Shown here: one piece after another, positions 1,396 to 10,433 of the stretch
How the letters are laid out: each line of letters opens with the position of its first letter
Numbering within the stretch: position 1 is the stretch's first letter
IMG/VR virus record: IMGVR_UViG_2703718840_000001
Coordinates: 1 to 10,940 of that record
Length of the DNA: 10,940 nt
Origin: a virus
Lineage: Duplodnaviria; Heunggongvirae; Uroviricota; Caudoviricetes
Strand: one strand, 5' to 3'
Program-made: the position numbers and the translations under genes
The notes under the pieces: generated by a model
Told to the model about the DNA's origin: nothing
What the model saw: the letters and a program-made list of their open reading frames with translations, nothing else
The model's database searches: none

Positions 1396-3618
1396 ATGAG
1401 CACAAAATTCAGAACCGTTATCACCACTGCCGGTGCAGCAAAGCTGGCAGCGGCAACCGCACCGGGAGGGCGGAAGGTCAACATTACCACGATGGCCGTC
1501 GGGGATGGCGGTGGTAAATTACCTGTCCCGGATGCCGGACAGACCGGGCTTATCCACGAAGTCTGGCGACATGCGCTGAACAAAATCAGTCAGGACAAAC
1601 GAAACAGTAATTATATTATCGCAGAGCTGGTTATTCCGCCGGAGGTGGGCGGTTTCTGGATGCGAGAGCTTGGCCTGTACGATGATGCGGGAACGTTAAT
1701 TGCCGTGGCGAACATGGCCGAAAGTTATAAGCCAGCCCTTGCCGAAGGCTCAGGGCGTTCGCAGACCTGCCGCATGGTCATCATCGTCAGCAGTGTGGCC
1801 TCAGTGGAGCTGACCATTGACACCACAACGGTGATGGCAACGCAGGATTACGTTGATGACAAAATTGCAGAACATGAACAGTCACGACGTCACCCTGACG
1901 CCTCGCTGACCGCAAAAGGTTTTACTCAGTTAAGCAGTGCGACCAACAGCACGTCTGAAACACTGGCCGCAACGCCGAAAGCGGTAAAGGCCGCGTATGA
2001 CCTTGCTAACGGGAAATATACCGCACAGGACGCCACCATAGCGCGAAAAGGCCTTGTCCAGCTCAGTAGTGCCACCAACAGCACGTCTGAAACACTGGCC
2101 GCAACGCCGAAAGCGGTAAAGGCAGCATATGACCTTGCTAACGGGAAATACACTGCACAGGACGCCACCACAACGCGAAAAGGCCTTGTCCAGCTCAGTA
2201 GCGCCACCAACAGCGATTCTGAAACGCTGGCCGCAACGCCAAAGGCGGTAAAAGCAGCATATGACCTTGCTAACGGGAAATATACCGCACAGGACGCCAC
2301 CACAGCGCGGAAAGGCCTTGTCCAGCTCAATAGTGCCATCAACAGCGATTCTGAAACGCTGGCCGCAACACCAAAAGCAGTGAAGTCTGCCTATGACAAT
2401 GCTGAAAAACGTCTTCAGAAAGATCAGAACGGTGCGGATATTCCTGATAAAGGACGTTTTCTGAGTAACATTAATGTTTACAGCAAAGGTGAAGTGGATA
2501 AGAAAAAGGGAATGCGAAAGTATTCGTTTGCAGCCCCTGCAAATGTCGTTGCCGGGAAGTGGTATCCCGTTATCTTTCGCCGTGCTGCCAGCCTTTCAGG
2601 AGAAATGGCATCCCGCGTCGTTATTTCCACTGGTTGTTATAACGGCGATTATGTAATGAATAACTGCGAGTTTAATGGCATGGTTATGCCCGGAGGATGG
2701 ACTGATCGTGGTTCATATGCGGCAGGTTATTTCTGGACGTATCAGACCAATGAGCGTTCAATCCATTCCATTGTTACAAGCCTGAAAGATGATGATGTAT
2801 GTAGTGTTTTTTATGTTGAAGCCAGAGCTTTCCCTGTGCAAATTCTTGCAGAGGAAGGGCTAACGGTTATTGTTCCGACAGAGGATTATGTCGTCGGTCA
2901 AACGACATATAAGTGGGGGGCAACTAATCCCGCTACAGAAAGCACGAACGCACAGGCTATTCTGGATTTTAAAAATGGGCGCGGTTATTACTGCTCACAT
3001 CCATTTATTTCCAACCTTTCAGGAAATGCTGCAACAGCCTCAAAACTCGAAACACCGAGGAAAATAGCAGGTGTTGCCTTTGATGGTTCTGGAGATATTA
3101 CCCTTAATGCCAGAAATGTCGGTGCATTTGCACTTCGGCAGACAGGTAATACGGTTAATGGTGATACAGCCGTGGGATGGAATTGGGACAGTGGCGCATA
3201 CAACGCTCTGATTGGGGGAGCATCTGCATTAATTCTTCACTTTAATATAAATGCTGGTAGCTGCCCGGCTGTACAGTTTCGTGTGAATTATAAAAATGGC
3301 GGTATATCTTACAGGTCAGCCCGTGATGGTTATGGTTTTGAATCTGGCTGGTCTGATTTCTATACCACAACACGAAAACCATCAGCGGGAGATGTTGGTG
3401 CATACACCAAAGCTGAATCAGATTCTCGCTATGTCCGGGATATTCGCCTGGGCACTCGTGTTGTTCAGACCATGCAGAAAGGAGTGATGTATGAGAAAGC
3501 AGGGCACGTAATTACAGGGCTTGGTATTGTCGGTGAAGTCGATGGTGATGACCCCGCAGTATTCAGACCAATACAAAAATACATCAATGGCACATGGTAT
3601 AACGTCGCACAGGTGTAA
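1396..3618 (+). CDS. H: Tail fibre protein H (P2 gpH-like), with internal 44-aa tandem repeats and a divergent distal (receptor-binding) part
   Basis: 740-aa ORF preceded by GAGG (1388-1391). The N-terminal ~170 aa (MSTKFRTVITTAGAAKLAAATAPGGRKV...) and the extreme C-terminus (...YEKAGHVITGLGIVGEVDGDDPAVFRPIQKYINGTWYNVAQV) match P2 gpH as I recall it. The middle and distal part is AT-rich and contains a motif (NAATASKLETPRKIAGVAFDGSGDITLNA) that I recall as typical of side-tail-fibre proteins. Confidence 0.92.
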   Translation: MSTKFRTVITTAGAAKLAAATAPGGRKVNITTMAVGDGGGKLPVPDAGQTGLIHEVWRHALNKISQDKRNSNYIIAELVIPPEVGGFWMRELGLYDDAGTLIAVANMAESYKPALAEGSGRSQTCRMVIIVSSVASVELTIDTTTVMATQDYVDDKIAEHEQSRRHPDASLTAKGFTQLSSATNSTSETLAATPKAVKAAYDLANGKYTAQDATIARKGLVQLSSATNSTSETLAATPKAVKAAYDLANGKYTAQDATTTRKGLVQLSSATNSDSETLAATPKAVKAAYDLANGKYTAQDATTARKGLVQLNSAINSDSETLAATPKAVKSAYDNAEKRLQKDQNGADIPDKGRFLSNINVYSKGEVDKKKGMRKYSFAAPANVVAGKWYPVIFRRAASLSGEMASRVVISTGCYNGDYVMNNCEFNGMVMPGGWTDRGSYAAGYFWTYQTNERSIHSIVTSLKDDDVCSVFYVEARAFPVQILAEEGLTVIVPTEDYVVGQTTYKWGATNPATESTNAQAILDFKNGRGYYCSHPFISNLSGNAATASKLETPRKIAGVAFDGSGDITLNARNVGAFALRQTGNTVNGDTAVGWNWDSGAYNALIGGASALILHFNINAGSCPAVQFRVNYKNGGISYRSARDGYGFESGWSDFYTTTRKPSAGDVGAYTKAESDSRYVRDIRLGTRVVQTMQKGVMYEKAGHVITGLGIVGEVDGDDPAVFRPIQKYINGTWYNVAQV
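1918..2400 (+). repeat. In-frame tandem repeat array, 132-bp unit (44 aa), about 3.6 copies, inside tail-fibre gene H
   Basis: Direct reading: units start at about 1918, 2050, 2182 and 2314 (for example ACGTCTGAAACACTGGCC at 1951 and again at 2083). The peptide GLVQLSSATNS(T/D)SETLAATPKAVKAAYDLANGKYTAQDATTARK recurs. Copies 1-2 share the NSTSETL variant and copies 3-4 the NSDSETL variant. Confidence 0.93.
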
Positions 3619-3621
3619 TTT

Positions 3622-4149
3622 ATGCAGCATTTAAAAAATATTACTGCGGGTAATCCAAAAACTGTTGCCCAATATCAACTGACAAAAAATTTTGATGTTA
3701 TCTGGTTATGGTCCGAAGAGGGAAAAAACTGGTATGAGGAAGTAAGTAATTTTCAGGAAGAGACGATAAAGATTGTTTACGACGAGAATAATATAATTGT
3801 CGGCATCACCCGAGATGCTTCAACGCTTAACCCTGAAGGTTTTAGCGTTGTCGAGGTTCCTGATATTACTGCCAACCGACGTGCTGATGACTCAGGTAAA
3901 TGGATGTTTAAGGATGGTGCCGTGATTAAGCGGATTTATACGGCAGACGAACAGCAGCAACTGGCAGAATCACAAAAGGCAACTTTGCTTTCCGAAGCAG
4001 AATCCGTGATTTTGCCGCTGGAGCGCGCTGTCAGGCTGAATATGGCAACAGATGAGGAACGCAGCCGACTGGAAGCATGGGAACGCTACAGCGTTCTGGT
4101 CAGCCGTGTGGATCCTGCAAATCCTGAATGGCCGGAAATGCCGCAATAA
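3622..4149 (+). CDS. G: Tail fibre assembly protein/chaperone (P2 gpG-like, Tfa family)
   Basis: 175-aa ORF immediately downstream of H with AGGTG at 3611-3615. The C-terminal half (...[38 protein letters not shown]) resembles the conserved end of tail-fibre assembly proteins. Length and position match P2 gene G. Confidence 0.88.
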
Positions 4150-4185
4150 GTTGTATAAGCTCTGGTGTGAGATTACATATCTATG

Positions 4186-4224
4186 GCACAGAGTAAAGCC
4201 TAATCTGACAGGCCGCTCTGTGTC
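4186..4224 (+). other. Imperfect inverted repeat / possible stem-loop downstream of G
   Basis: CACAGAG (4187-4193) pairs with CTCTGTG (4216-4222), with a ~22-nt loop. No T-tract follows, so it is not a classical intrinsic terminator. Confidence 0.2.
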
Positions 4225-4370
4225 TGGAGTAGATTTTAGTAAAGCATTATTTTATTAGTGCAAATTCTAAACAATACATTTTATGTATATGATATCCTGC
4301 GGACTTTAATGACTTGGTTTAGGCTAACCAGATAACACTGAAGGAATATTTTTGATAATTAAGGTGCGGT

Positions 4371-4964
4371 ATGTTTACTAAGCGACGATTAAAAAATATT
4401 AACTGGGAGGCAAGTTCAGTGATTCTTGCTATGGTTCTCTTTGTTGGAAATATATTTTATACAAATCATCGTGATGATATAAGCATGGAGGCTGAGAGAG
4501 ACAGTATCAGAACAATGTTTGCATATGAAATCGCTAATAACCATCGCGCTCTCACTTTTCTTGATAAAACGAGAAATATTGGCTTTGACGAAAATTCGGA
4601 GCATTTTGTTGGCGAGCCTTTTGCCATTAATGTCGAATCATTAGGAGGGCCTCGCTTACAGATTGCATTAAACCAGACTGATAAAGTTTTTAAAGCCTAC
4701 TTCAGTGAATTAAGTAAACTTGATAAAGAGGATGTTACTCTTCTTATGGACTATTACCATGAGCAAAGCATCCTGCTGGAGTGTGTAAAATCTACGTTAC
4801 AGAAGATGAAAGGTAATAATGATATTAAAGTTGATATTGATGGTTACTTATTAGAAGAACACTTCATGAATGAGTTTAATCTTTCTAATATTTTGCTTAA
4901 ACGCTATAGCCATTTGTTGTCACAACACCTCAAAAAACCCGAAACAAAGGATTTACATAATTGA
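4371..4964 (+). CDS. Hypothetical protein of the accessory insert between G and FI: predicted single-pass membrane-anchored protein, function unknown
   Basis: 197-aa ORF with AAGGTG (4361-4366) 4 nt upstream of the ATG. It is markedly AT-rich compared with the flanking tail genes. The N-terminus has a basic stretch (KRRLK) followed by a ~17-residue hydrophobic segment (SSVILAMVLFVGNIFY), suggesting an N-in signal anchor. The rest is charged and likely helical, with no catalytic motif I recognise. Only one long ORF lies in this ~1.1 kb inter-module region. Confidence 0.7.
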   Translation: MFTKRRLKNINWEASSVILAMVLFVGNIFYTNHRDDISMEAERDSIRTMFAYEIANNHRALTFLDKTRNIGFDENSEHFVGEPFAINVESLGGPRLQIALNQTDKVFKAYFSELSKLDKEDVTLLMDYYHEQSILLECVKSTLQKMKGNNDIKVDIDGYLLEEHFMNEFNLSNILLKRYSHLLSQHLKKPETKDLHN

Positions 4965-5152
4965 TAATCTGCTAATGGTTATTCATGGGATAACTATGTT
5001 TTATATGTAATCCAACTCAGATGAATTACTGATTCTGGATAATAACCGCAGAGCGGCATATACCCTGACAGGCAAATGTCCGCTTCTTGCTCAAAGCAGA
5101 CTGTCAGATTTGATAACTTTTGGGTTATGTAAATTGTCAGTCGGAAAATGAG

Positions 5153-5170
5153 TGTGTACAAATCAGGACA
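5153..5170 (+). promoter_or_regulatory. Candidate activator-type dyad (TGT-N12-ACA) upstream of FI, possible P2-style late promoter element
   Basis: TGT (5153-5155) - 12 nt - ACA (5168-5170). P2-family late promoters are known to carry a TGT-N12-ACA dyad centred near -55 for Ogr/Delta-type activators, and the FI-operon late promoter is expected in this spacer. The match is short, and the hairpin at 5172-5188 sits where the core promoter would be, so this is tentative. Confidence 0.2.
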
Positions 5171-5171
5171 G

Positions 5172-5199
5172 GCGGGCGAATTGCCCGCATTTTCTTTAT
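5172..5199 (+). terminator. Candidate Rho-independent terminator downstream of the accessory ORF
   Basis: GC-rich 6-bp stem GCGGGC (5172-5177) / GCCCGC (5183-5188) with a 5-nt loop (GAATT), followed by the T-rich run ATTTTCTTTATC (5189-5200). It lies about 200 bp after the 4964 stop and about 100 bp before FI. Confidence 0.4.
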
Positions 5200-5293
5200 C
5201 TGTTGTTTCATCCCCTGACCAGCCAGGTCAAATAGCGTCTCATGCTCTGCACAACAGAAAATAGTTGCACCCATTAACCACGGAGTTAAACGG

Positions 5294-6484
5294 ATGAGTG
5301 ACTATCATCACGGCGTGCAGGTGCTGGAGATTAACGACGGCACCCGCGTCATTTCCACCGTATCCACGGCCATTGTCGGCATGGTCTGCACGGCCAGCGA
5401 TGCAGATGCGGAAACCTTCCCCCTCAATAAACCGGTGCTGATTACCAATGTGCAGAGCGCAATTGCAAAGGCCGGTAAAAAAGGCACGCTGGCGGCATCG
5501 TTGCAGGCCATCGCCGACCAGTCAAAACCGGTCACCGTTGTCGTGCGTGTGGAAGACGGCACCGGCGACGACGAAGAAACGAAACTCGCGCAGACCGTTT
5601 CCAATATCATCGGCACCACCGACGAAAACGGCCAGTACACCGGACTGAAAGCCCTGCTGGCGGCGGAGTCGGTAACCGGTGTTAAACCGCGTATTCTCGG
5701 TGTGCCGGGGCTGGATACCAAAGAGGTGGCTGTTGCACTGGCATCAGTCTGTCAGAAGTTGCGCGCTTTCGGGTATATCAGCGCATGGGGCTGTAAGACC
5801 ATTTCCGAGGTGAAAGCCTACCGCCAGAATTTCAGCCAGCGTGAGCTGATGGTCATCTGGCCGGATTTCCTCGCATGGGATACGGTCACCAGTACCACCG
5901 CCACCGCGTATGCCACCGCCCGTGCGCTGGGTCTGCGTGCCAAAATCGACCAGGAGCAGGGCTGGCATAAAACGCTGTCCAACGTCGGGGTAAACGGTGT
6001 TACCGGCATCAGTGCCTCTGTATTCTGGGATTTGCAGGAGTCCGGCACCGATGCTGACCTGCTTAACGAGTCAGGCGTCACTACGCTGATTCGCCGCGAC
6101 GGTTTCCGATTCTGGGGTAACCGTACCTGCTCTGATGACTCGCTGTTCCTCTTTGAAAACTACACCCGCACCGCGCAGGTGCTGGCCGACACGATGGCTG
6201 AGGCGCACATGTGGGCGGTGGACAAGCCCATCACCGCAACGCTGATTCGCGACATCGTTGACGGCATCAATGCCAAATTCCGTGAGCTGAAAACAAACGG
6301 CTATATCGTGGATGCGACCTGCTGGTTCAGCGAAGAATCCAACGATGCGGAAACCCTCAAGGCCGGAAAACTGTATATCGACTACGACTATACACCGGTG
6401 CCTCCTCTTGAAAATCTGACCCTGCGCCAGCGTATTACCGATAAATACCTGGCAAATCTGGTCACCTCGGTTAACAGCAATTAA
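5294..6484 (+). CDS. FI: Contractile tail sheath protein (P2 gpFI-like)
   Basis: 396-aa ORF (MSDYHHGVQVLEINDGTRVISTVSTAIVGMV...) recognised as P2 FI. GGAG at 5282-5285. It is the first gene after the accessory insert, as in the P2 FETUD operon. Confidence 0.94.
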   Translation: MSDYHHGVQVLEINDGTRVISTVSTAIVGMVCTASDADAETFPLNKPVLITNVQSAIAKAGKKGTLAASLQAIADQSKPVTVVVRVEDGTGDDEETKLAQTVSNIIGTTDENGQYTGLKALLAAESVTGVKPRILGVPGLDTKEVAVALASVCQKLRAFGYISAWGCKTISEVKAYRQNFSQRELMVIWPDFLAWDTVTSTTATAYATARALGLRAKIDQEQGWHKTLSNVGVNGVTGISASVFWDLQESGTDADLLNESGVTTLIRRDGFRFWGNRTCSDDSLFLFENYTRTAQVLADTMAEAHMWAVDKPITATLIRDIVDGINAKFRELKTNGYIVDATCWFSEESNDAETLKAGKLYIDYDYTPVPPLENLTLRQRITDKYLANLVTSVNSN

Positions 6485-6496
6485 GGAGCCTGACCG

Positions 6497-7015
6497 ATGG
6501 CAATGCCGCGCAAACTCAAGTTAATGAACGTCTTTCTGAACGGCTACAGCTATCAGGGCGTCGCGAAGTCCGTCACGCTACCAAAACTGACCCGTAAGCT
6601 CGAAAACTATCGCGGTGCGGGGATGAACGGCAGCGCACCGGTAGACCTCGGCCTTGATGACGATGCGCTGTCAATGGAGTGGTCGCTCGGTGGCTTCCCG
6701 GATTCGGTTATCTGGGAGCTTTACGCCGCAACCGGTGTGGATGCCGTACCGATTCGTTTTGCAGGCTCTTACCAGCGCGACGATACCGGCGAAACGGTGG
6801 CCGTCGAGGTGGTCATGCGTGGACGTCAGAAAGAAATCGACACCGGCGAGGGCAAACAGGGAGAAGACACCGAGTCGAAAATCTCCGTGGTCTGCACCTA
6901 TTTCCGGCTGACGATGGACGGTAAGGAGCTGGTCGAAATCGACACCATCAACATGATTGAGAAGGTGAACGGCGTCGACCGGCTGGAGCAACACCGTCGC
7001 AATATCGGCCTGTGA
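6497..7015 (+). CDS. FII: Tail tube protein (P2 gpFII-like)
   Basis: 172-aa ORF (MAMPRKLKLMNVFLNGYSYQGVAKSVTLPKLTRKLENYRGAG...) recognised as P2 FII. AAGGAG at 6482-6487 overlaps the FI stop codon. Confidence 0.94.
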   Translation: MAMPRKLKLMNVFLNGYSYQGVAKSVTLPKLTRKLENYRGAGMNGSAPVDLGLDDDALSMEWSLGGFPDSVIWELYAATGVDAVPIRFAGSYQRDDTGETVAVEVVMRGRQKEIDTGEGKQGEDTESKISVVCTYFRLTMDGKELVEIDTINMIEKVNGVDRLEQHRRNIGL

Positions 7016-7071: not shown

Positions 7072-7347
7072 ATGAACAAAGAAAACGTCATTACCCTGGA
7101 CAAGCCGGTCAAACGTGGTGAGCAGGTTATCGAACAGGTCACGCTGATGAAACCTAATGCCGGGACGCTGCGCGGTGTCAGTCTGGCTGCGGTCGCAAAC
7201 TCCGAAGTCGATGCACTGATTAAAGTGCTGCCGCGCATGACCGCACCGATGCTGACCGAGCAGGAAGTCGCCGCGCTGGAACTGCCTGACCTTGTGGCGC
7301 TGGCCGGTAAGGTGGTCGGTTTTTTGTCGCCGAACTCGGTGCAGTGA
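7072..7347 (+). CDS. E: Tail assembly chaperone E (P2 gpE-like), zero-frame product
   Basis: 91-aa ORF (MNKENVITLDKPVKRGEQVIEQVTLMKPNAGTLRGVSLAAV...) at the expected position between FII and T. It ends at TGA 7345-7347, just after the slippery site. Confidence 0.9.
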   Translation: MNKENVITLDKPVKRGEQVIEQVTLMKPNAGTLRGVSLAAVANSEVDALIKVLPRMTAPMLTEQEVAALELPDLVALAGKVVGFLSPNSVQ

Positions 7348-7499
7348 CGTTTCCGAAAAATCTCTCGGTCGATGATCTGATGGCGGATGTGGCAGTGATA
7401 TTTCACTGGCCGCCATCAGAACTGTATCCCATGAGCCTGACCGAACTCATCACATGGCGCGAAAAGGCGCTCCGGCGAAGCGGAAACACGAATGAGTAA
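7072..7499 (+). CDS. E+E': Tail assembly chaperone E+E' produced by programmed -1 ribosomal frameshift (joined 7072-7325 / 7326-7499)
   Basis: After a -1 slip on T-TTT-TTG (7320-7326) the new frame reads VAELGAVTFPKNLSVDDLMADVAVIFHWPPSELYPMSLTELITWREKALRRSGNTNE and stops at TAA 7497-7499, overlapping the ATG of T (7492). This matches the known P2 E/E' arrangement. Confidence 0.8.
7320..7326 (+). other. Slippery heptamer T-TTT-TTG, -1 programmed frameshift site for E+E'
   Basis: The heptamer is in the zero frame of E (codons GGT-TTT-TTG), 7 codons before the E stop. The -1 frame is open for 58 further codons to the start of T. Confidence 0.8.
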
Positions 7500-9939
7500 C
7501 AATGTAAAATTACAGGTATTGCTCAGGGCTGTTGACCAGGCATCCCGCCCGTTTAAATCCATCCGCACAGCGAGCAAGTCGCTGTCGGGGGATATCCGGG
7601 AAACACAAAAATCACTGCGCGAGCTGAACGGTCAGGCATCCCGTATTGAGGGGTTCCGCAAGACCAGTGCACAGCTCGCCGTGACTGGTCAGGAACTGAA
7701 AAAAGCCAGACAGGAAGCCGCAGCACTGGCTGTCCAGTTTAAAAATACTGAACGACCAACAAATGCACAGGCAAAGGCAATGGAAGCCGCGCGTAAAAAT
7801 GTGTCGGAGTTACAGGCGAAATATAACAGCCTGAGATTGTCGGTACAGCGCCAGCGTCAGGAACTGAGTCAGGCGGGTATTAATACCCGTAATCTGGCGC
7901 ATGATGAACGAGGGCTGAAAAACCGTATCAGTGAAACCACCGTACAGCTTAACCGGCAGCGTGACGCGCTGGCGCGTGTCAGTGCGCAACAGGCAAAACT
8001 TAACGCAGTAAAACAGCGTTATCAGGCCGGAAAGGAACTGGCCGGTAATATGGCCTCAGTGGGCGCTGCCGGTGTGGGGATTGCTGCTGCGGGAACGATG
8101 GTCGGAGTTAAGCTGCTGATGCCCGGTTATGAGTTTGCGCAGAAAAACTCAGAATTGCAGGCCGTGCTAGGAGTGGCAAAAGACTCCGCCGAAATGACCG
8201 CACTCCGCAAGCAGGCGCGCCAGCTCGGCGACAATACCGCAGCCTCGGCAGATGATGCAGCCGGTGCACAGATTATCATTGCGAAAGCGGGTGGAGATGC
8301 TGCGGCTATTCAGGCGACAACGCCGGTCACGCTGAATATGGCACTGGCGAATCAGCGGTCGATGGAAGAAAACGCGCAACTGTTGCTGGGGACTAAGGCA
8401 TCCTTTCAACTGTCAAATGATGATGTCAGCCATGTGGGCGACGTGTTGTCGGCAACGATGAATAAGTCGGCGGCTGATTTTCAGGGACTCAGTGATGCAC
8501 TGACTTACCTCGGGCCGGTTGCGAGGACTGCAGGTGTAAGTCTTGAGCAGGCAGCAGCCATGACAGGTGTGCTGCATGACAATAACATCAGGGGGTCAAT
8601 GGCGGGGACGGGTAGCAGTGCCGTTGTCACCCGATTACAGGCACCGACTGGAAAAGCATGGGATGCACTCAAAGAGCTTGGCGTTAAAACCTCGGACAAA
8701 AAGGGAAATATGCGTCCGTTGTTCACCATTCTGAAAGAGATTCAGGCCAGCTTTGATAAACACAAGCTGGGAACGTCTCAGAAGGGGGAATACCTTAAAA
8801 CCATTTTTGGTGAGGAAGCCCTGAAATCAGCGAACGTTTTACTGGCAGCGGCAGCAAGCGGAAAACTGGATAAGCTGACCGCCACGCTGAAAGCCTCGGA
8901 CGGTAAAACGGAAGAGCTGGTTAAAATCATGCAGGATAACCTCGGCGGTGACTTTAAGGCGTTTCAGTCCGCTTATGAGGCGGTGGGGACAGACCTGTTT
9001 GACCAGCAGGAAGGCACACTGCGTAAGCTCACGCAGACGGCCACAAAGTATGTGTTAAAACTCGACGGCTGGATCCAGAAAAACAAATCACTGGCGTCAA
9101 CCATCGGCCTCATTGCCGGTGGCGCGCTGGCGCTGACTGGCATCATCGGTGCCATTGGTCTTGTAGCCTGGCCGGTTATCACCGGCATCAATGCCATTAT
9201 CGCGGCAGCAGGCGCAATGGGAGCAATCTTCACGACGGTTGGCAGTGCTGTTATGACGGCCATCGGGGCGATTAGCTGGCCGGTTGTGGCCGTGGTGGCC
9301 GCCATTGTCGCCGGGGCGTTGCTTATCCGTAAATACTGGGAGCCTGTCAGCGCATTCTTTGGCGGTGTGGTTGAAGGGCTGAAAGCGGCATTTGCGCCGG
9401 TGGGGGAACTGTTCACGCCACTTAAGCCGGTGTTTGACTGGCTGGGCGAAAAGTTACAGGCCGCGTGGCAGTGGTTTAAAAACCTGATTGCCCCGGTTAA
9501 AGCCACCCAGGACACCCTGAACCGTTGCCGTGACACGGGCGTCATGTTCGGGCAGGCACTGGCTGACGCGCTGATGCTGCCGCTTAATGCGTTCAACAAA
9601 CTGCGCAGCGGTATTGACTGGGTACTGGAAAAACTCGGCGTCATCAACAAAGAGTCTGACGCACTTGACCAGACCGCCGCCAGAACTCAAGCCGCCACGT
9701 ATGGCAGCGGTGGTTATATTCCGGCGACCAGCTCTTATGCAGGTTATCAGGCTTATCAGCCGGTCACGGCACCGGCTGGCCGCTCTTATGTGGACCAGAG
9801 TAAAAACGAATATCACATCAGCCTGACGGGTGGTACTGCGCCGGGGACACAGCTCGACCGCCAGTTACAGGATGCGCTCGAAAAATACGAGCGGGATAAA
9901 CGTGCGCGCGCCCGTGCCAGCATGATGCATGACGGTTAA
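7492..9939 (+). CDS. T: Tail tape measure protein (P2 gpT-like)
   Basis: 815-aa ORF with a coiled-coil-like, Q/R/A-rich N-terminal part and a Gly/Ala-rich hydrophobic segment (LIAGGALALTGIIGAIGLVAWPVITGINAIIAAAGAMGAI...) typical of tape measure proteins. The start overlaps the E' stop. The sequence is recognised as P2 gpT. Confidence 0.93.
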   Translation: MSNNVKLQVLLRAVDQASRPFKSIRTASKSLSGDIRETQKSLRELNGQASRIEGFRKTSAQLAVTGQELKKARQEAAALAVQFKNTERPTNAQAKAMEAARKNVSELQAKYNSLRLSVQRQRQELSQAGINTRNLAHDERGLKNRISETTVQLNRQRDALARVSAQQAKLNAVKQRYQAGKELAGNMASVGAAGVGIAAAGTMVGVKLLMPGYEFAQKNSELQAVLGVAKDSAEMTALRKQARQLGDNTAASADDAAGAQIIIAKAGGDAAAIQATTPVTLNMALANQRSMEENAQLLLGTKASFQLSNDDVSHVGDVLSATMNKSAADFQGLSDALTYLGPVARTAGVSLEQAAAMTGVLHDNNIRGSMAGTGSSAVVTRLQAPTGKAWDALKELGVKTSDKKGNMRPLFTILKEIQASFDKHKLGTSQKGEYLKTIFGEEALKSANVLLAAAASGKLDKLTATLKASDGKTEELVKIMQDNLGGDFKAFQSAYEAVGTDLFDQQEGTLRKLTQTATKYVLKLDGWIQKNKSLASTIGLIAGGALALTGIIGAIGLVAWPVITGINAIIAAAGAMGAIFTTVGSAVMTAIGAISWPVVAVVAAIVAGALLIRKYWEPVSAFFGGVVEGLKAAFAPVGELFTPLKPVFDWLGEKLQAAWQWFKNLIAPVKATQDTLNRCRDTGVMFGQALADALMLPLNAFNKLRSGIDWVLEKLGVINKESDALDQTAARTQAATYGSGGYIPATSSYAGYQAYQPVTAPAGRSYVDQSKNEYHISLTGGTAPGTQLDRQLQDALEKYERDKRARARASMMHDG

Positions 9940-9953
9940 GGAGGTGACGAAAA

Positions 9954-10433
9954 ATGATGCTCGCGTTAGGTATGTTTGTTTTTATGCGCCAGACGCTGCC
10001 ACACCAGACCATGCAGCGTGAATCAGATTATCGCTGGCCGTCAAATTCCCGTATCGGTAAACGGGATGCCTACCAGTTTCTCGGCGTTGGCGAGGAAAAC
10101 ATGACGCTGGCCGGTGTGCTTTATCCCGAACTGACCGGCGGCAAGCTGACGATGACCACGCTCAGGCTGATGGCAGAGGAAGGTCGGGCGTGGCCGTTGC
10201 TGGATGGCACCGGCATGATTTACGGCATGTATGTCATCAGCAGGGTGAGTGAAACAGGGAGTATTTTCTTTGCAGACGGCACACCCCGAAAAATTGATTT
10301 TACGCTGTCGCTCACCCGCGTTGACGAATCACTGGCCGCGCTTTATGGCGATATCGGTAAACAGGCGGAATCGCTCATCGGTAAGGCCGGCAGTCTGGCG
10401 ACCAGATTCACAGGTATGACGGGGGCGGGATAA
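9954..10433 (+). CDS. U: Tail protein U (P2 gpU-like)
   Basis: 159-aa ORF (MMLALGMFVFMRQTLPHQTMQRESDYRWPSNSRIGKRDAYQF...) with AAGGAGG at 9938-9944. It follows T as in P2, and its TAA stop overlaps the next ATG (TAATG at 10431-10435). Confidence 0.92.
   Translation: MMLALGMFVFMRQTLPHQTMQRESDYRWPSNSRIGKRDAYQFLGVGEENMTLAGVLYPELTGGKLTMTTLRLMAEEGRAWPLLDGTGMIYGMYVISRVSETGSIFFADGTPRKIDFTLSLTRVDESLAALYGDIGKQAESLIGKAGSLATRFTGMTGAG

Follow-up and report, generated by a model that had tools for sequence, protein, structure and literature searches.

Apparent modular assembly of the distal tail fibre of a P2-like prophage and linkage of its tip to the N-terminal half of the chaperone

The 10.9-kb stretch of viral DNA analysed here (IMG/VR record IMGVR_UViG_2703718840_000001; hereafter the window) is recognizable from its sequence as late-gene DNA of a P2-like (Peduovirus) Escherichia coli prophage, carrying J, I, H, G, a moron, FI, FII, E/E′, T and U. 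Our analysis concerns genes H and G, which very probably encode a P2-like long tail fibre and its Tfa-type chaperone, with a modular distal fibre in which the tip and the N-terminal domain of G constitute the exchange unit that is linked to the chaperone. A first-pass annotation of the same DNA had described nucleotides (nt) 2400–3900 as one exchanged host-range cassette. Comparison with relatives indicates instead that the block at nt 2404–3900 comprises at least three independently assorting modules, which we call C, D and the H tip with G, and places internal breakpoints at nt ~2454–2480, 3016–3123 and 3385–3417. The broader idea of a recombinational mosaic was borne out, as the parts of the two genes, when compared separately, have their nearest relatives in different phage groups.

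The order of open reading frames (ORFs) in the window, J-I-H-G-(moron)-FI-FII, is collinear with that of P2, of Peduovirus P22H4 and of an annotated prophage in strain UPEC-245U (NZ_CP049845), and synteny with P2 and P2-like prophages is accompanied by 95–97% nucleotide identity. The UPEC-245U prophage spans the entire window at 95.5% identity, and its gene H is labelled 'tail fiber protein'. In the window, H was defined by ORF and Pfam analysis at nt 1396–3618 on the plus strand and encodes a tail fibre protein of 740 amino acids (aa), with Phage_tail_fib (PF12571) at aa 1–151 (E = 1.4e-58), four Phage_fiber_2 stretches (E = 4.1e-81) and gp37_C at aa 592–677. Its N-terminal attachment domain, its place between I and G in the series V-W-J-I-H-G, its shaft repeats and the homology of its tip are those of the P2 gpH type. 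The product is predicted to be a trimeric fibre binding the core of lipopolysaccharide (LPS), a specificity suggested by analogy with P2, Mu and P1.

Gene G begins at nt 3622, directly after the end of the H ORF at nt 3618 (stop codon counted), and extends on the plus strand to nt 4149. Its product matches Caudo_TAP (PF02413) at aa 40–175 (E = 1.2e-34), and all 175 residues match Mu U (5yvq_B; E = 6e-101). G is thereby assigned to the Tfa/Caudo_TAP type of assembly chaperone, with chaperone activity and tip binding predicted from the Mu complex. The protein divides into an N-terminal half (aa 1–93, nt 3622–3900, plus strand), which is matched by phrog_24494 and by Mu homology would be the fibre-binding domain, and a C-terminal half (aa 94–175, nt 3901–4149, plus strand), the conserved Caudo_TAP domain. 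Residues 1–93 and 101–175 fall into distinct PHROG families. In tblastn searches, the N-terminal half was found in 141 phage records and the C-terminal half in 269, including lambda, 186, ST64B, APSE-2 and Klebsiella phages; the N-terminal half occurs in discrete identity classes of 81–99%, 65–69% and below 55%. The P1 chaperones U and U′ share 89% and 67% identity, respectively, with the N-terminal half and 89% and 35% with the C-terminal half.

The evidence for modularity comes from breakpoints, which were located using BLAST blocks, a 60-nt sliding identity table and mismatch maps. The 5′ part of H (module A; nt 1396–2120, plus strand; GC content 0.55) encodes the P2-core N-terminal part, consisting of the baseplate-attachment domain and the first fibre repeat, and is nearly that of P2 (97% nucleotide identity over nt 1–2121 of the window; 176/180 aa). 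It is followed, as the first-pass annotation had noted, by a repeat array upstream of the AT-rich block. This tandem array of 132-nt (44-aa) Phage_fiber_2 units (repeat family D1) occupies nt 1897–2403 on the plus strand, and Tandem Repeats Finder reports a period of 132 nt and 3.5 copies at nt 1936–2397. Copy number in the array varies among relatives; the collinear alignment with P2 ends inside it, at nt 2121, and P2 H appears from its sequence to have fewer repeats than the window. The UPEC-245U allele is otherwise nearly identical to that of the window, and roughly two-thirds of the nucleotides at which they differ are located in the array; this clustering suggests copy-to-copy conversion or unequal crossing-over.

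Just beyond the array lies the first junction, at a conserved linker, NGADIPDKGRFLSNINVY (nt 2428–2481, plus strand): phage 12474III is identical to the window up to nt ~2454 and unrelated thereafter. The linker aligns with residues 150–173 of Mu S, presumably the site of the Sc/Sv (gix) boundary between the constant and variable parts of the invertible segments. The P1 cixR crossover encodes VIQYLGLRE in S. An alternative linker at this junction, QNGADIPGKDTFTKNIG, is present in 12474III and also in the 8ju3 construct. The second junction (nt 3025–3111, plus strand; H residues 544–572) coincides with the motif NAATASKLETPRKIAGVAFDGSGDITLNA; the breakpoint zone here is that of the GNAATASKLETPRKIAGVAFDGSGDITL motif at nt ~3016–3111. 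Homology to L-413C and PhiR44_2 begins at nt 3016, and homology to 12474III and P1 Sv′ begins at nt 3123. The first-pass annotation had connected this distal motif with side-tail-fibre proteins of unrelated phages, and relatives were indeed found in T4-like distal long-tail-fibre subunits (61–64% over 39 aa) and in E. coli prophage fibres with Collar or gp53-like tips, where the motif joins module C to various tips. The third junction was confined by mismatch maps to nt 3385–3417 (plus strand), within the coding stretch for KPSAGDVGAYTKAE; together, the conserved coding motifs KPSAGDVGAYTKAE and DSRYVRDIRLG span nt 3376–3453. Between the window and P22H4 there are 3 mismatches in the 956 nt from nt 2461 to 3416, and mismatches are dense from nt 3417, whereas the comparison with 12474III gives the reverse arrangement, dense mismatches up to nt 3384 and sparse ones beyond. 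The proposal that exchange takes place at conserved sequence is supported, as breakpoints do fall on short conserved motifs. The end of H, which had been regarded as a conserved flank, itself belongs to the unit exchanged with the chaperone.

These junctions delimit three segments of H with separate sets of relatives. Module C (approximately nt 2461–3015, plus strand), a mid-fibre domain, is 99.8% identical in nucleotide sequence to P22H4 and is not present in P2, 12474III or L-413C. Its protein sequence is 60–62% identical to siphovirus fibres (Turner, 2H10 and 9g) and 27–41% identical to T5-like lateral fibres, to rV5-like phages and to Aeromonas T4-like distal subunits, and it occupies a mid-fibre position in 9g (aa ~518–719 of 1211) and HildyBeyeler (aa ~622–778 of 1374) as well as a mid-profile position in PHROG fibre families. 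A homologue search returned 22 proteins, mostly partial prophage fibre fragments, in which C precedes Collar and gp53-like tips; this alignment is too shallow for a good structure model, and the AlphaFold2 model, which is all-beta, is of moderate confidence (predicted local distance difference test, pLDDT, 64). Searches with module C gave no significant structural neighbour in the PDB and no significant family match. Together, C and D are carried by 24 of 5426 complete E. coli genomes.

Module D (nt 3124–3400, plus strand) is a gp37_C-like distal shaft domain of the Mu S′/P1 Sv′ type. Its best solved relative is 8ju3, a Mu S/S′ construct that matches H residues 572–738 (E = 1.2e-78), and its identities are 79/98 aa to P1 Sv′, 12/43 to P1 S, 99/99 to P22H4, 82/99 to 12474III and 74/93 to L-413C. 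The H tip (module E; aa 676–740, nt 3421–3618, plus strand) belongs with Mu S, P1 S and P2 H in type. It can be aligned to residues 434–503 of Mu S in 5yvq_A, and has a variable core between the conserved ends DSRYVRDIRLG and RPIQKYINGTWYNVAQV. Here the identities are 64/65 aa to 12474III, 63/65 to L-413C, 53/65 to P2, 51/65 to P1 S, 32/73 to P22H4 and 27/67 to P1 Sv′. A return of H to P2-like sequence near its end had been recognized at the outset, and P2 nucleotide homology restarts at nt 3421, 66 codons before the stop. D and the tip match P2-, Mu-, P1- and FelixO1-like fibres and module C matches siphovirus, T5-like and rV5-like fibres. The window fibre thus combines an S′-like shaft domain with an S-like tip and a U-type chaperone.

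Among the comparators, identity in the tip parallels identity in the N-terminal half of G, and the C-terminal half stays constant at 82–96% in all P2-like comparators. In amino acid identity to the window, the tip, the G N-terminal half and the G C-terminal half score 98%, 97% and 96% in 12474III; 97%, 92.5% and 96% in L-413C; 82%, 89% and 91.5% in P2; 44%, 67% and 87% in P22H4; and 42%, 67% and 82% in PhiR44_2. Across 84 U-type loci, comprising the reference loci and 80 IMG/VR loci and limited to G at least 90% identical, nucleotide identity of the tip correlates with that of the G N-terminal half (r = 0.83, p = 1e-14), compared with r = 0.16 for the C-terminal half. Because of this limit on G identity, a second set of 80 loci, seeded by a P22H4-type G, was added, and the tip adjoins G in 166 of the 170 loci in total. 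Tip type and G N-terminal type are concordant in every one of these 166, with an S-type tip in 83 of 83 loci that have a U-type chaperone half and the other tip in 83 of 83 loci that have the other type. By contrast with this strict linkage, module C (at least 90% aa identity) accompanies the U-type chaperone in 4 loci and the other type in 22, and a matching D does so in 4 and 6 loci; C and D are found in only 4 of the 48 loci that have the window tip type and a complete H. The counts across chaperone types indicate, therefore, that C, D and the tip with G assort separately. Of the earlier suggestion that fibre and chaperone N-terminal half moved together, the part concerning the last ~65 codons of H survives, whereas the bulk of the AT-rich distal H does not follow the chaperone. 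Nor is the N-terminal half of G foreign to P2: its aa identity is 89% to the P2 protein and 86% to Mu U.

The start of G carries an additional micro-mosaic (nt 3622–3675), in which the first ~15 codons resemble P22H4 and 12474III and are unlike the P2/Mu version, MQHLKNIKSGNPKTK; the residues that follow, NFDVIWLW, agree with P2 and Mu. Further crossovers may occur in this conserved stretch.

The AT-richness that first drew attention to nt 2400–3900 was confirmed. GC content is 0.440 in nt 2404–3900 compared with 0.561 in the backbone, taken for this purpose as nt 1–2403 and 5294 to the end (chi-square p = 8e-18), and 1.5-kb backbone intervals have a mean of 0.558, a standard deviation of 0.009 and a minimum of 0.535. 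Along H and G, values of 0.546 in the 5′ part of H and 0.551 in the repeat array give way to 0.444 at nt 2404–3123, 0.455 at nt 3124–3420, 0.475 at nt 3421–3618 and 0.391 in the N-terminal half of G, before 0.518 is reached in its C-terminal half. Third codon positions carry most of the drop: GC at these positions (GC3) is 0.36 at nt 2404–3123, 0.30 at nt 3124–3420, 0.45 at nt 3421–3615 and 0.34 in the G N-terminal half, against 0.58–0.69 in backbone genes, whereas GC at the first two positions (GC1+2) falls far less, to 0.41–0.53 from 0.51–0.57. Likelihood segmentation of the whole window placed its top-level boundaries at nt 2372, 4229 and 5310, separating segments with GC of 0.565, 0.451, 0.361 and 0.560. 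It follows from these boundaries that the low-GC tract runs past G into an AT-richer island at nt 4230–5310, and the rise near nt 3900 is a local feature of 250 nt.

The first-pass annotation had treated this composition as evidence of replacement, an argument that fails because P2 itself and its relatives share the profile. In P2, GC is 0.561 in the 5′ part of H, 0.476 and 0.465 in distal H, 0.376 in the G N-terminal half and 0.506 in the C-terminal half, and matching steps are found in P22H4, 12474III, L-413C and PhiR44_2 despite their different middle modules. The P1 S/U and Sv′/U′ sets have the same distal-fibre and chaperone steps as the window, and the GC of module C is 0.444 in both 9g and the window and 0.427 in the T5-like phage HildyBeyeler. 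Low GC in the distal fibre and chaperone is accordingly a family trait and no mark of a recent swap, and it can be used neither to date nor to infer a swap in a single phage. The distal fibre and the chaperone N-terminal half retain the composition of a common lower-GC module pool, the P2 backbone being at ~0.56.

Several other explanations can be set against a modular fibre with a chaperone-linked tip. Import on a single occasion of one cassette of nt ~2400–3900, comprising the distal two-thirds of H and the N-terminal half of G and entering through the conserved H 5′ and G 3′ parts, would account for the contiguous low-GC tract over those coordinates and for the missing P2 nucleotide homology between nt 2121 and 3421. 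The block has, however, neither uniform relatives along its length nor boundaries at the composition step. P2 homology resumes at nt 3421 and continues across all of G at 78–100% per 60-nt interval; identity to P22H4 is 99.7% over nt 2461–3416 and then falls to as little as 32% per 60-nt interval; 12474III has the tip and G at 90–98% without module C; and the rarity of C with D among loci of the same tip, their occurrence with both chaperone types and the shared GC profile of P2 all argue in the same direction. We regard such an import as very unlikely. If, alternatively, the AT-richness reflected constraint on the protein or local selection on expression rather than a separate origin of the DNA, the somewhat reduced GC1+2, chiefly in the G N-terminal half (0.41), and the conservation of the pattern in every relative examined would be explained. 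This seems extremely unlikely, given that most of the drop sits at third positions (GC3 0.30–0.36 in the lowest parts), that copies of the same modules in low-GC phage genomes do not differ in GC (9g 0.444, HildyBeyeler 0.427, P1 0.47), and that the N-terminal part of the fibre and its repeats, which are fibre sequence too, stay at backbone GC.

The homology of D, the tip and G to S, S′ and U of Mu and P1, together with the alignment of the first junction to the presumed Sc/Sv boundary of Mu S, raises the prospect of an invertible host-range switch, present or recently lost, of the kind formed by the G segment of Mu or the C segment of P1. The 10.9-kb window contains no serine invertase gene (gin/cin), with orf197 and then FI lying downstream of G, and no inverted repeats bracket the fibre segment. 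A second, inverted tip and chaperone set was not found on the minus strand of the window, where the only ORFs in nt 2400–3900 are two of 70–71 aa, inside H or across the H–G boundary. All that resembles a crossover site is a half-site-like remnant, GTTTACAG, at nt ~2470, and so recent or present inversion has a negligible probability in our estimation. Membership among invertible segments (Mu G, P1 C, p15B Min) was accordingly rejected, the region having neither the invertase nor the opposed sets within inverted crossover sites. A different possibility places host range in module C, which at nt ~2461–3015 might act as an extra lateral receptor-binding domain, while the tip and G would provide the generic anchoring to the LPS core that P2, Mu and P1 also have. 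Consistent with this, C is compact and all-beta, with ~160 residues, takes an internal position in the lateral fibres of many unrelated phages, is paired with different tips and is rare in P2-like prophages, as the 24 E. coli genomes indicate. Structural and family searches were nonetheless without significant match, the confidence of the model is modest and any binding role putative, and internal fibre domains can be purely structural; we consider this assignment doubtful. A related and equally tentative suggestion, in our judgement improbable, is that module C (H residues ~355–540), a beta-sandwich domain for which no solved homologue was detected, forms a second lateral glycan-binding site, which would make the fibre bivalent and its host range combinatorial with the unit of tip and chaperone.

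We favour a modular fibre with a chaperone-linked tip, and propose that the distal part would be assembled from a pan-phage pool of modules with GC of ~0.43–0.47, joined by homologous recombination at short conserved linker motifs. The window allele would then have five parts: the P2-core N-terminus, the expanded 44-aa repeats, module C, module D, and a tip of ~65 residues resembling those of Mu S, P1 S and P2, accompanied by a chaperone of the Mu U type. In this scheme, the chaperone-containing exchange unit would be the tip plus the N-terminal domain of G (nt ~3400–4090), the C-terminal domain of G would be generic, and the shaft modules C and D would be exchanged independently upstream of the tip. 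The variable core of the tip and the G N-terminal domain are proposed to move as a pair forming a folding and binding interface, and they would have to match because the tip is the predicted binding partner of that domain. PMC9608196, summarizing North et al. (2019), states that the non-conserved N-terminal domain of Mu Tfa attaches to the distal part of the fibre and is retained in the virion, and that its conserved helical C-terminal domain drives trimerization. By analogy with the Mu structure 5YVQ and this literature, the G N-terminal domain is predicted to contact the tip, to remain on the fibre and to help set LPS-core binding, and the modules may, on the same grounds, alter host range.

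Several points weigh against so simple a scheme. Both locus sets were picked by similarity of G, and the linkage covers two chaperone types only. The right boundary of the unit of tip and G lies at nt ~4040–4095, beyond the nominal N-terminal domain, and conservation between types extends over the first ~18 codons of G, so that the unit is not cleanly the tip plus residues 1–93. The contact between H residues 676–740 and G residues 1–93 is predicted from Mu homology. Should the scheme hold, P2-type fibres would need to move only the last ~65 fibre residues and the chaperone N-terminal domain together, with the upstream shaft modules freely exchangeable at short conserved linkers, which would help to engineer the fibres of P2, Mu, P1 or tailocins and to read prophage host range from sequence.

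The low-GC island that follows G (nt 4230–5310; GC 0.361 by segmentation) is separate from the fibre region and occupies the position at which P2 has fun(Z). It contains orf197 (nt 4371–4964, plus strand), an accessory ORF whose 197-aa product seems, on inspection by eye, to begin with a hydrophobic N-terminal segment. Neither Pfam nor PADLOC gave a match to orf197, and its one PHROG match is phrog_3829, a family of unknown function. It occurs in 13 Peduovirus records only, annotated 'hypothetical' in every one and accompanied by several different H alleles. Other cargo in the slot of relatives includes P2 fun(Z), a SMEK-domain protein, a Shedu nuclease and an S1 peptidase; the Z/fun locus is named as a defence locus (PMC13586616), and orf197 may be a gene for exclusion or defence. 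It is flanked by an imperfect inverted repeat of 19 nt (nt 4202–4220 and 5092–5110; 84% complementary, arms 871 nt apart), and nt 5075–5110 of the window have an inverted 36-nt match in L-413C; these repeats may represent conserved sequences of the cargo slot that act as its boundaries or as terminators. At nt 5172–5188 there is a terminator-like hairpin.

The remaining genes are J (partial, nt 167–862) and I (nt 855–1385) upstream of H, and FI (nt 5294–6484), FII (nt 6497–7015), E/E′ (from nt 7072), T (nt 7492–9939) and U (nt 9954–10433) beyond the island. Within the E/E′ region (nt 7072–7499), a GGTTTTTTG run at nt 7318–7326, 20 nt before the E stop codon, looks like the programmed −1 frameshift of the P2 E/E′ tail chaperone. 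In the UPEC-245U annotation, the downstream frame at nt ~7380–7499 is a 'GpE family phage tail protein'. An Rfam scan of the whole window yielded no families at the gathering score.

Among the known phages, P2 (NC_001895) shares with the window the operon position V-W-J-I-H-G, the 97% nucleotide identity up to nt 2121, the tip type, the same chaperone and the GC profile. It is unrelated to the window between nt 2121 and 3421 and then 63–100% identical per 60-nt interval across the H tip and all of G; its H, at 669 aa, has an unrelated middle without modules C and D in addition to its apparently smaller number of repeats. In P22H4 (NC_049385), modules A to D are the same as in the window, with 100% aa identity up to residue 675, whereas the tip and the G N-terminal half differ: identity is 32–51% over nt 3436–3555 and 48–80% over nt 3676–4035, and returns to 90–98% after nt ~4040. 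H is 748 aa in P22H4 and in an APEC O78 prophage, compared with 740 aa in the window. The window is thus a tip-and-chaperone recombinant of the P22H4 allele. The UPEC-245U prophage has the same complete allele (2 mismatches over nt 2704–4229) and the same orf197. In 12474III, the sequence that is unrelated after nt ~2454 remains so to nt 3123 and is followed by 67–80% identity over nt 3123–3375 and 90–98% over nt 3376–4215.

Mosaicism of H and G in the P2 family and the window allele itself are already known, because of a description in 1992, the hybrid fibre of L-413C and the presence of the allele in public genomes. Haggard-Ljungquist, Halling and Calendar reportedly found in that year (J Bacteriol 174:1462) that P2 tail fibres are mosaics with similarity to those of Mu, P1, lambda and T-even phages, and that G resembles Mu U/U′. 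The case is therefore a clean worked example more than a discovery, with some residual novelty in the mid-fibre module C alone. PMC9594776 and PMC7460101 cite Haggard-Ljungquist 1992 for the mosaicism of the P2 tail fibre, and PMC7460101, summarizing Garcia et al. (2008), describes GpH of the Yersinia phage L-413C as a hybrid of four regions. L-413C resembles the window in its P2-like N-terminus, mosaic middle and P2/Mu-like C-terminus, with a G at 92–96% aa identity; nucleotide identity is 65–82% from nt 3016, where homology starts, and 85–98% from nt 3436. Its H, in contrast, is 913 aa long, has other middle modules in place of C and carries only a more distant D.

More distant still are the fibres of the Nonagvirus 9g, of Turner and 2H10, and of T5-like (HildyBeyeler) and rV5-like phages, which share module C and a similar GC with the window but belong to unrelated virion types with other N-terminal anchors, distal tips and chaperones. 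Mu and P1, on the other hand, resemble the window at the distal end, in the two-domain logic of the chaperone (G is 86–88% identical in aa sequence to Mu U and 89% to P1 U), in the S-type tip and, through Mu S′ and P1 Sv′, in module D. They differ from it in the N-terminal two-thirds of H, which is P2-specific, and in having an invertase, crossover sites and an alternative inverted set, none of which is present in the window; and the pairing of an S′-like shaft with an S-like tip, which the window fibre possesses, is encoded by neither orientation of P1.

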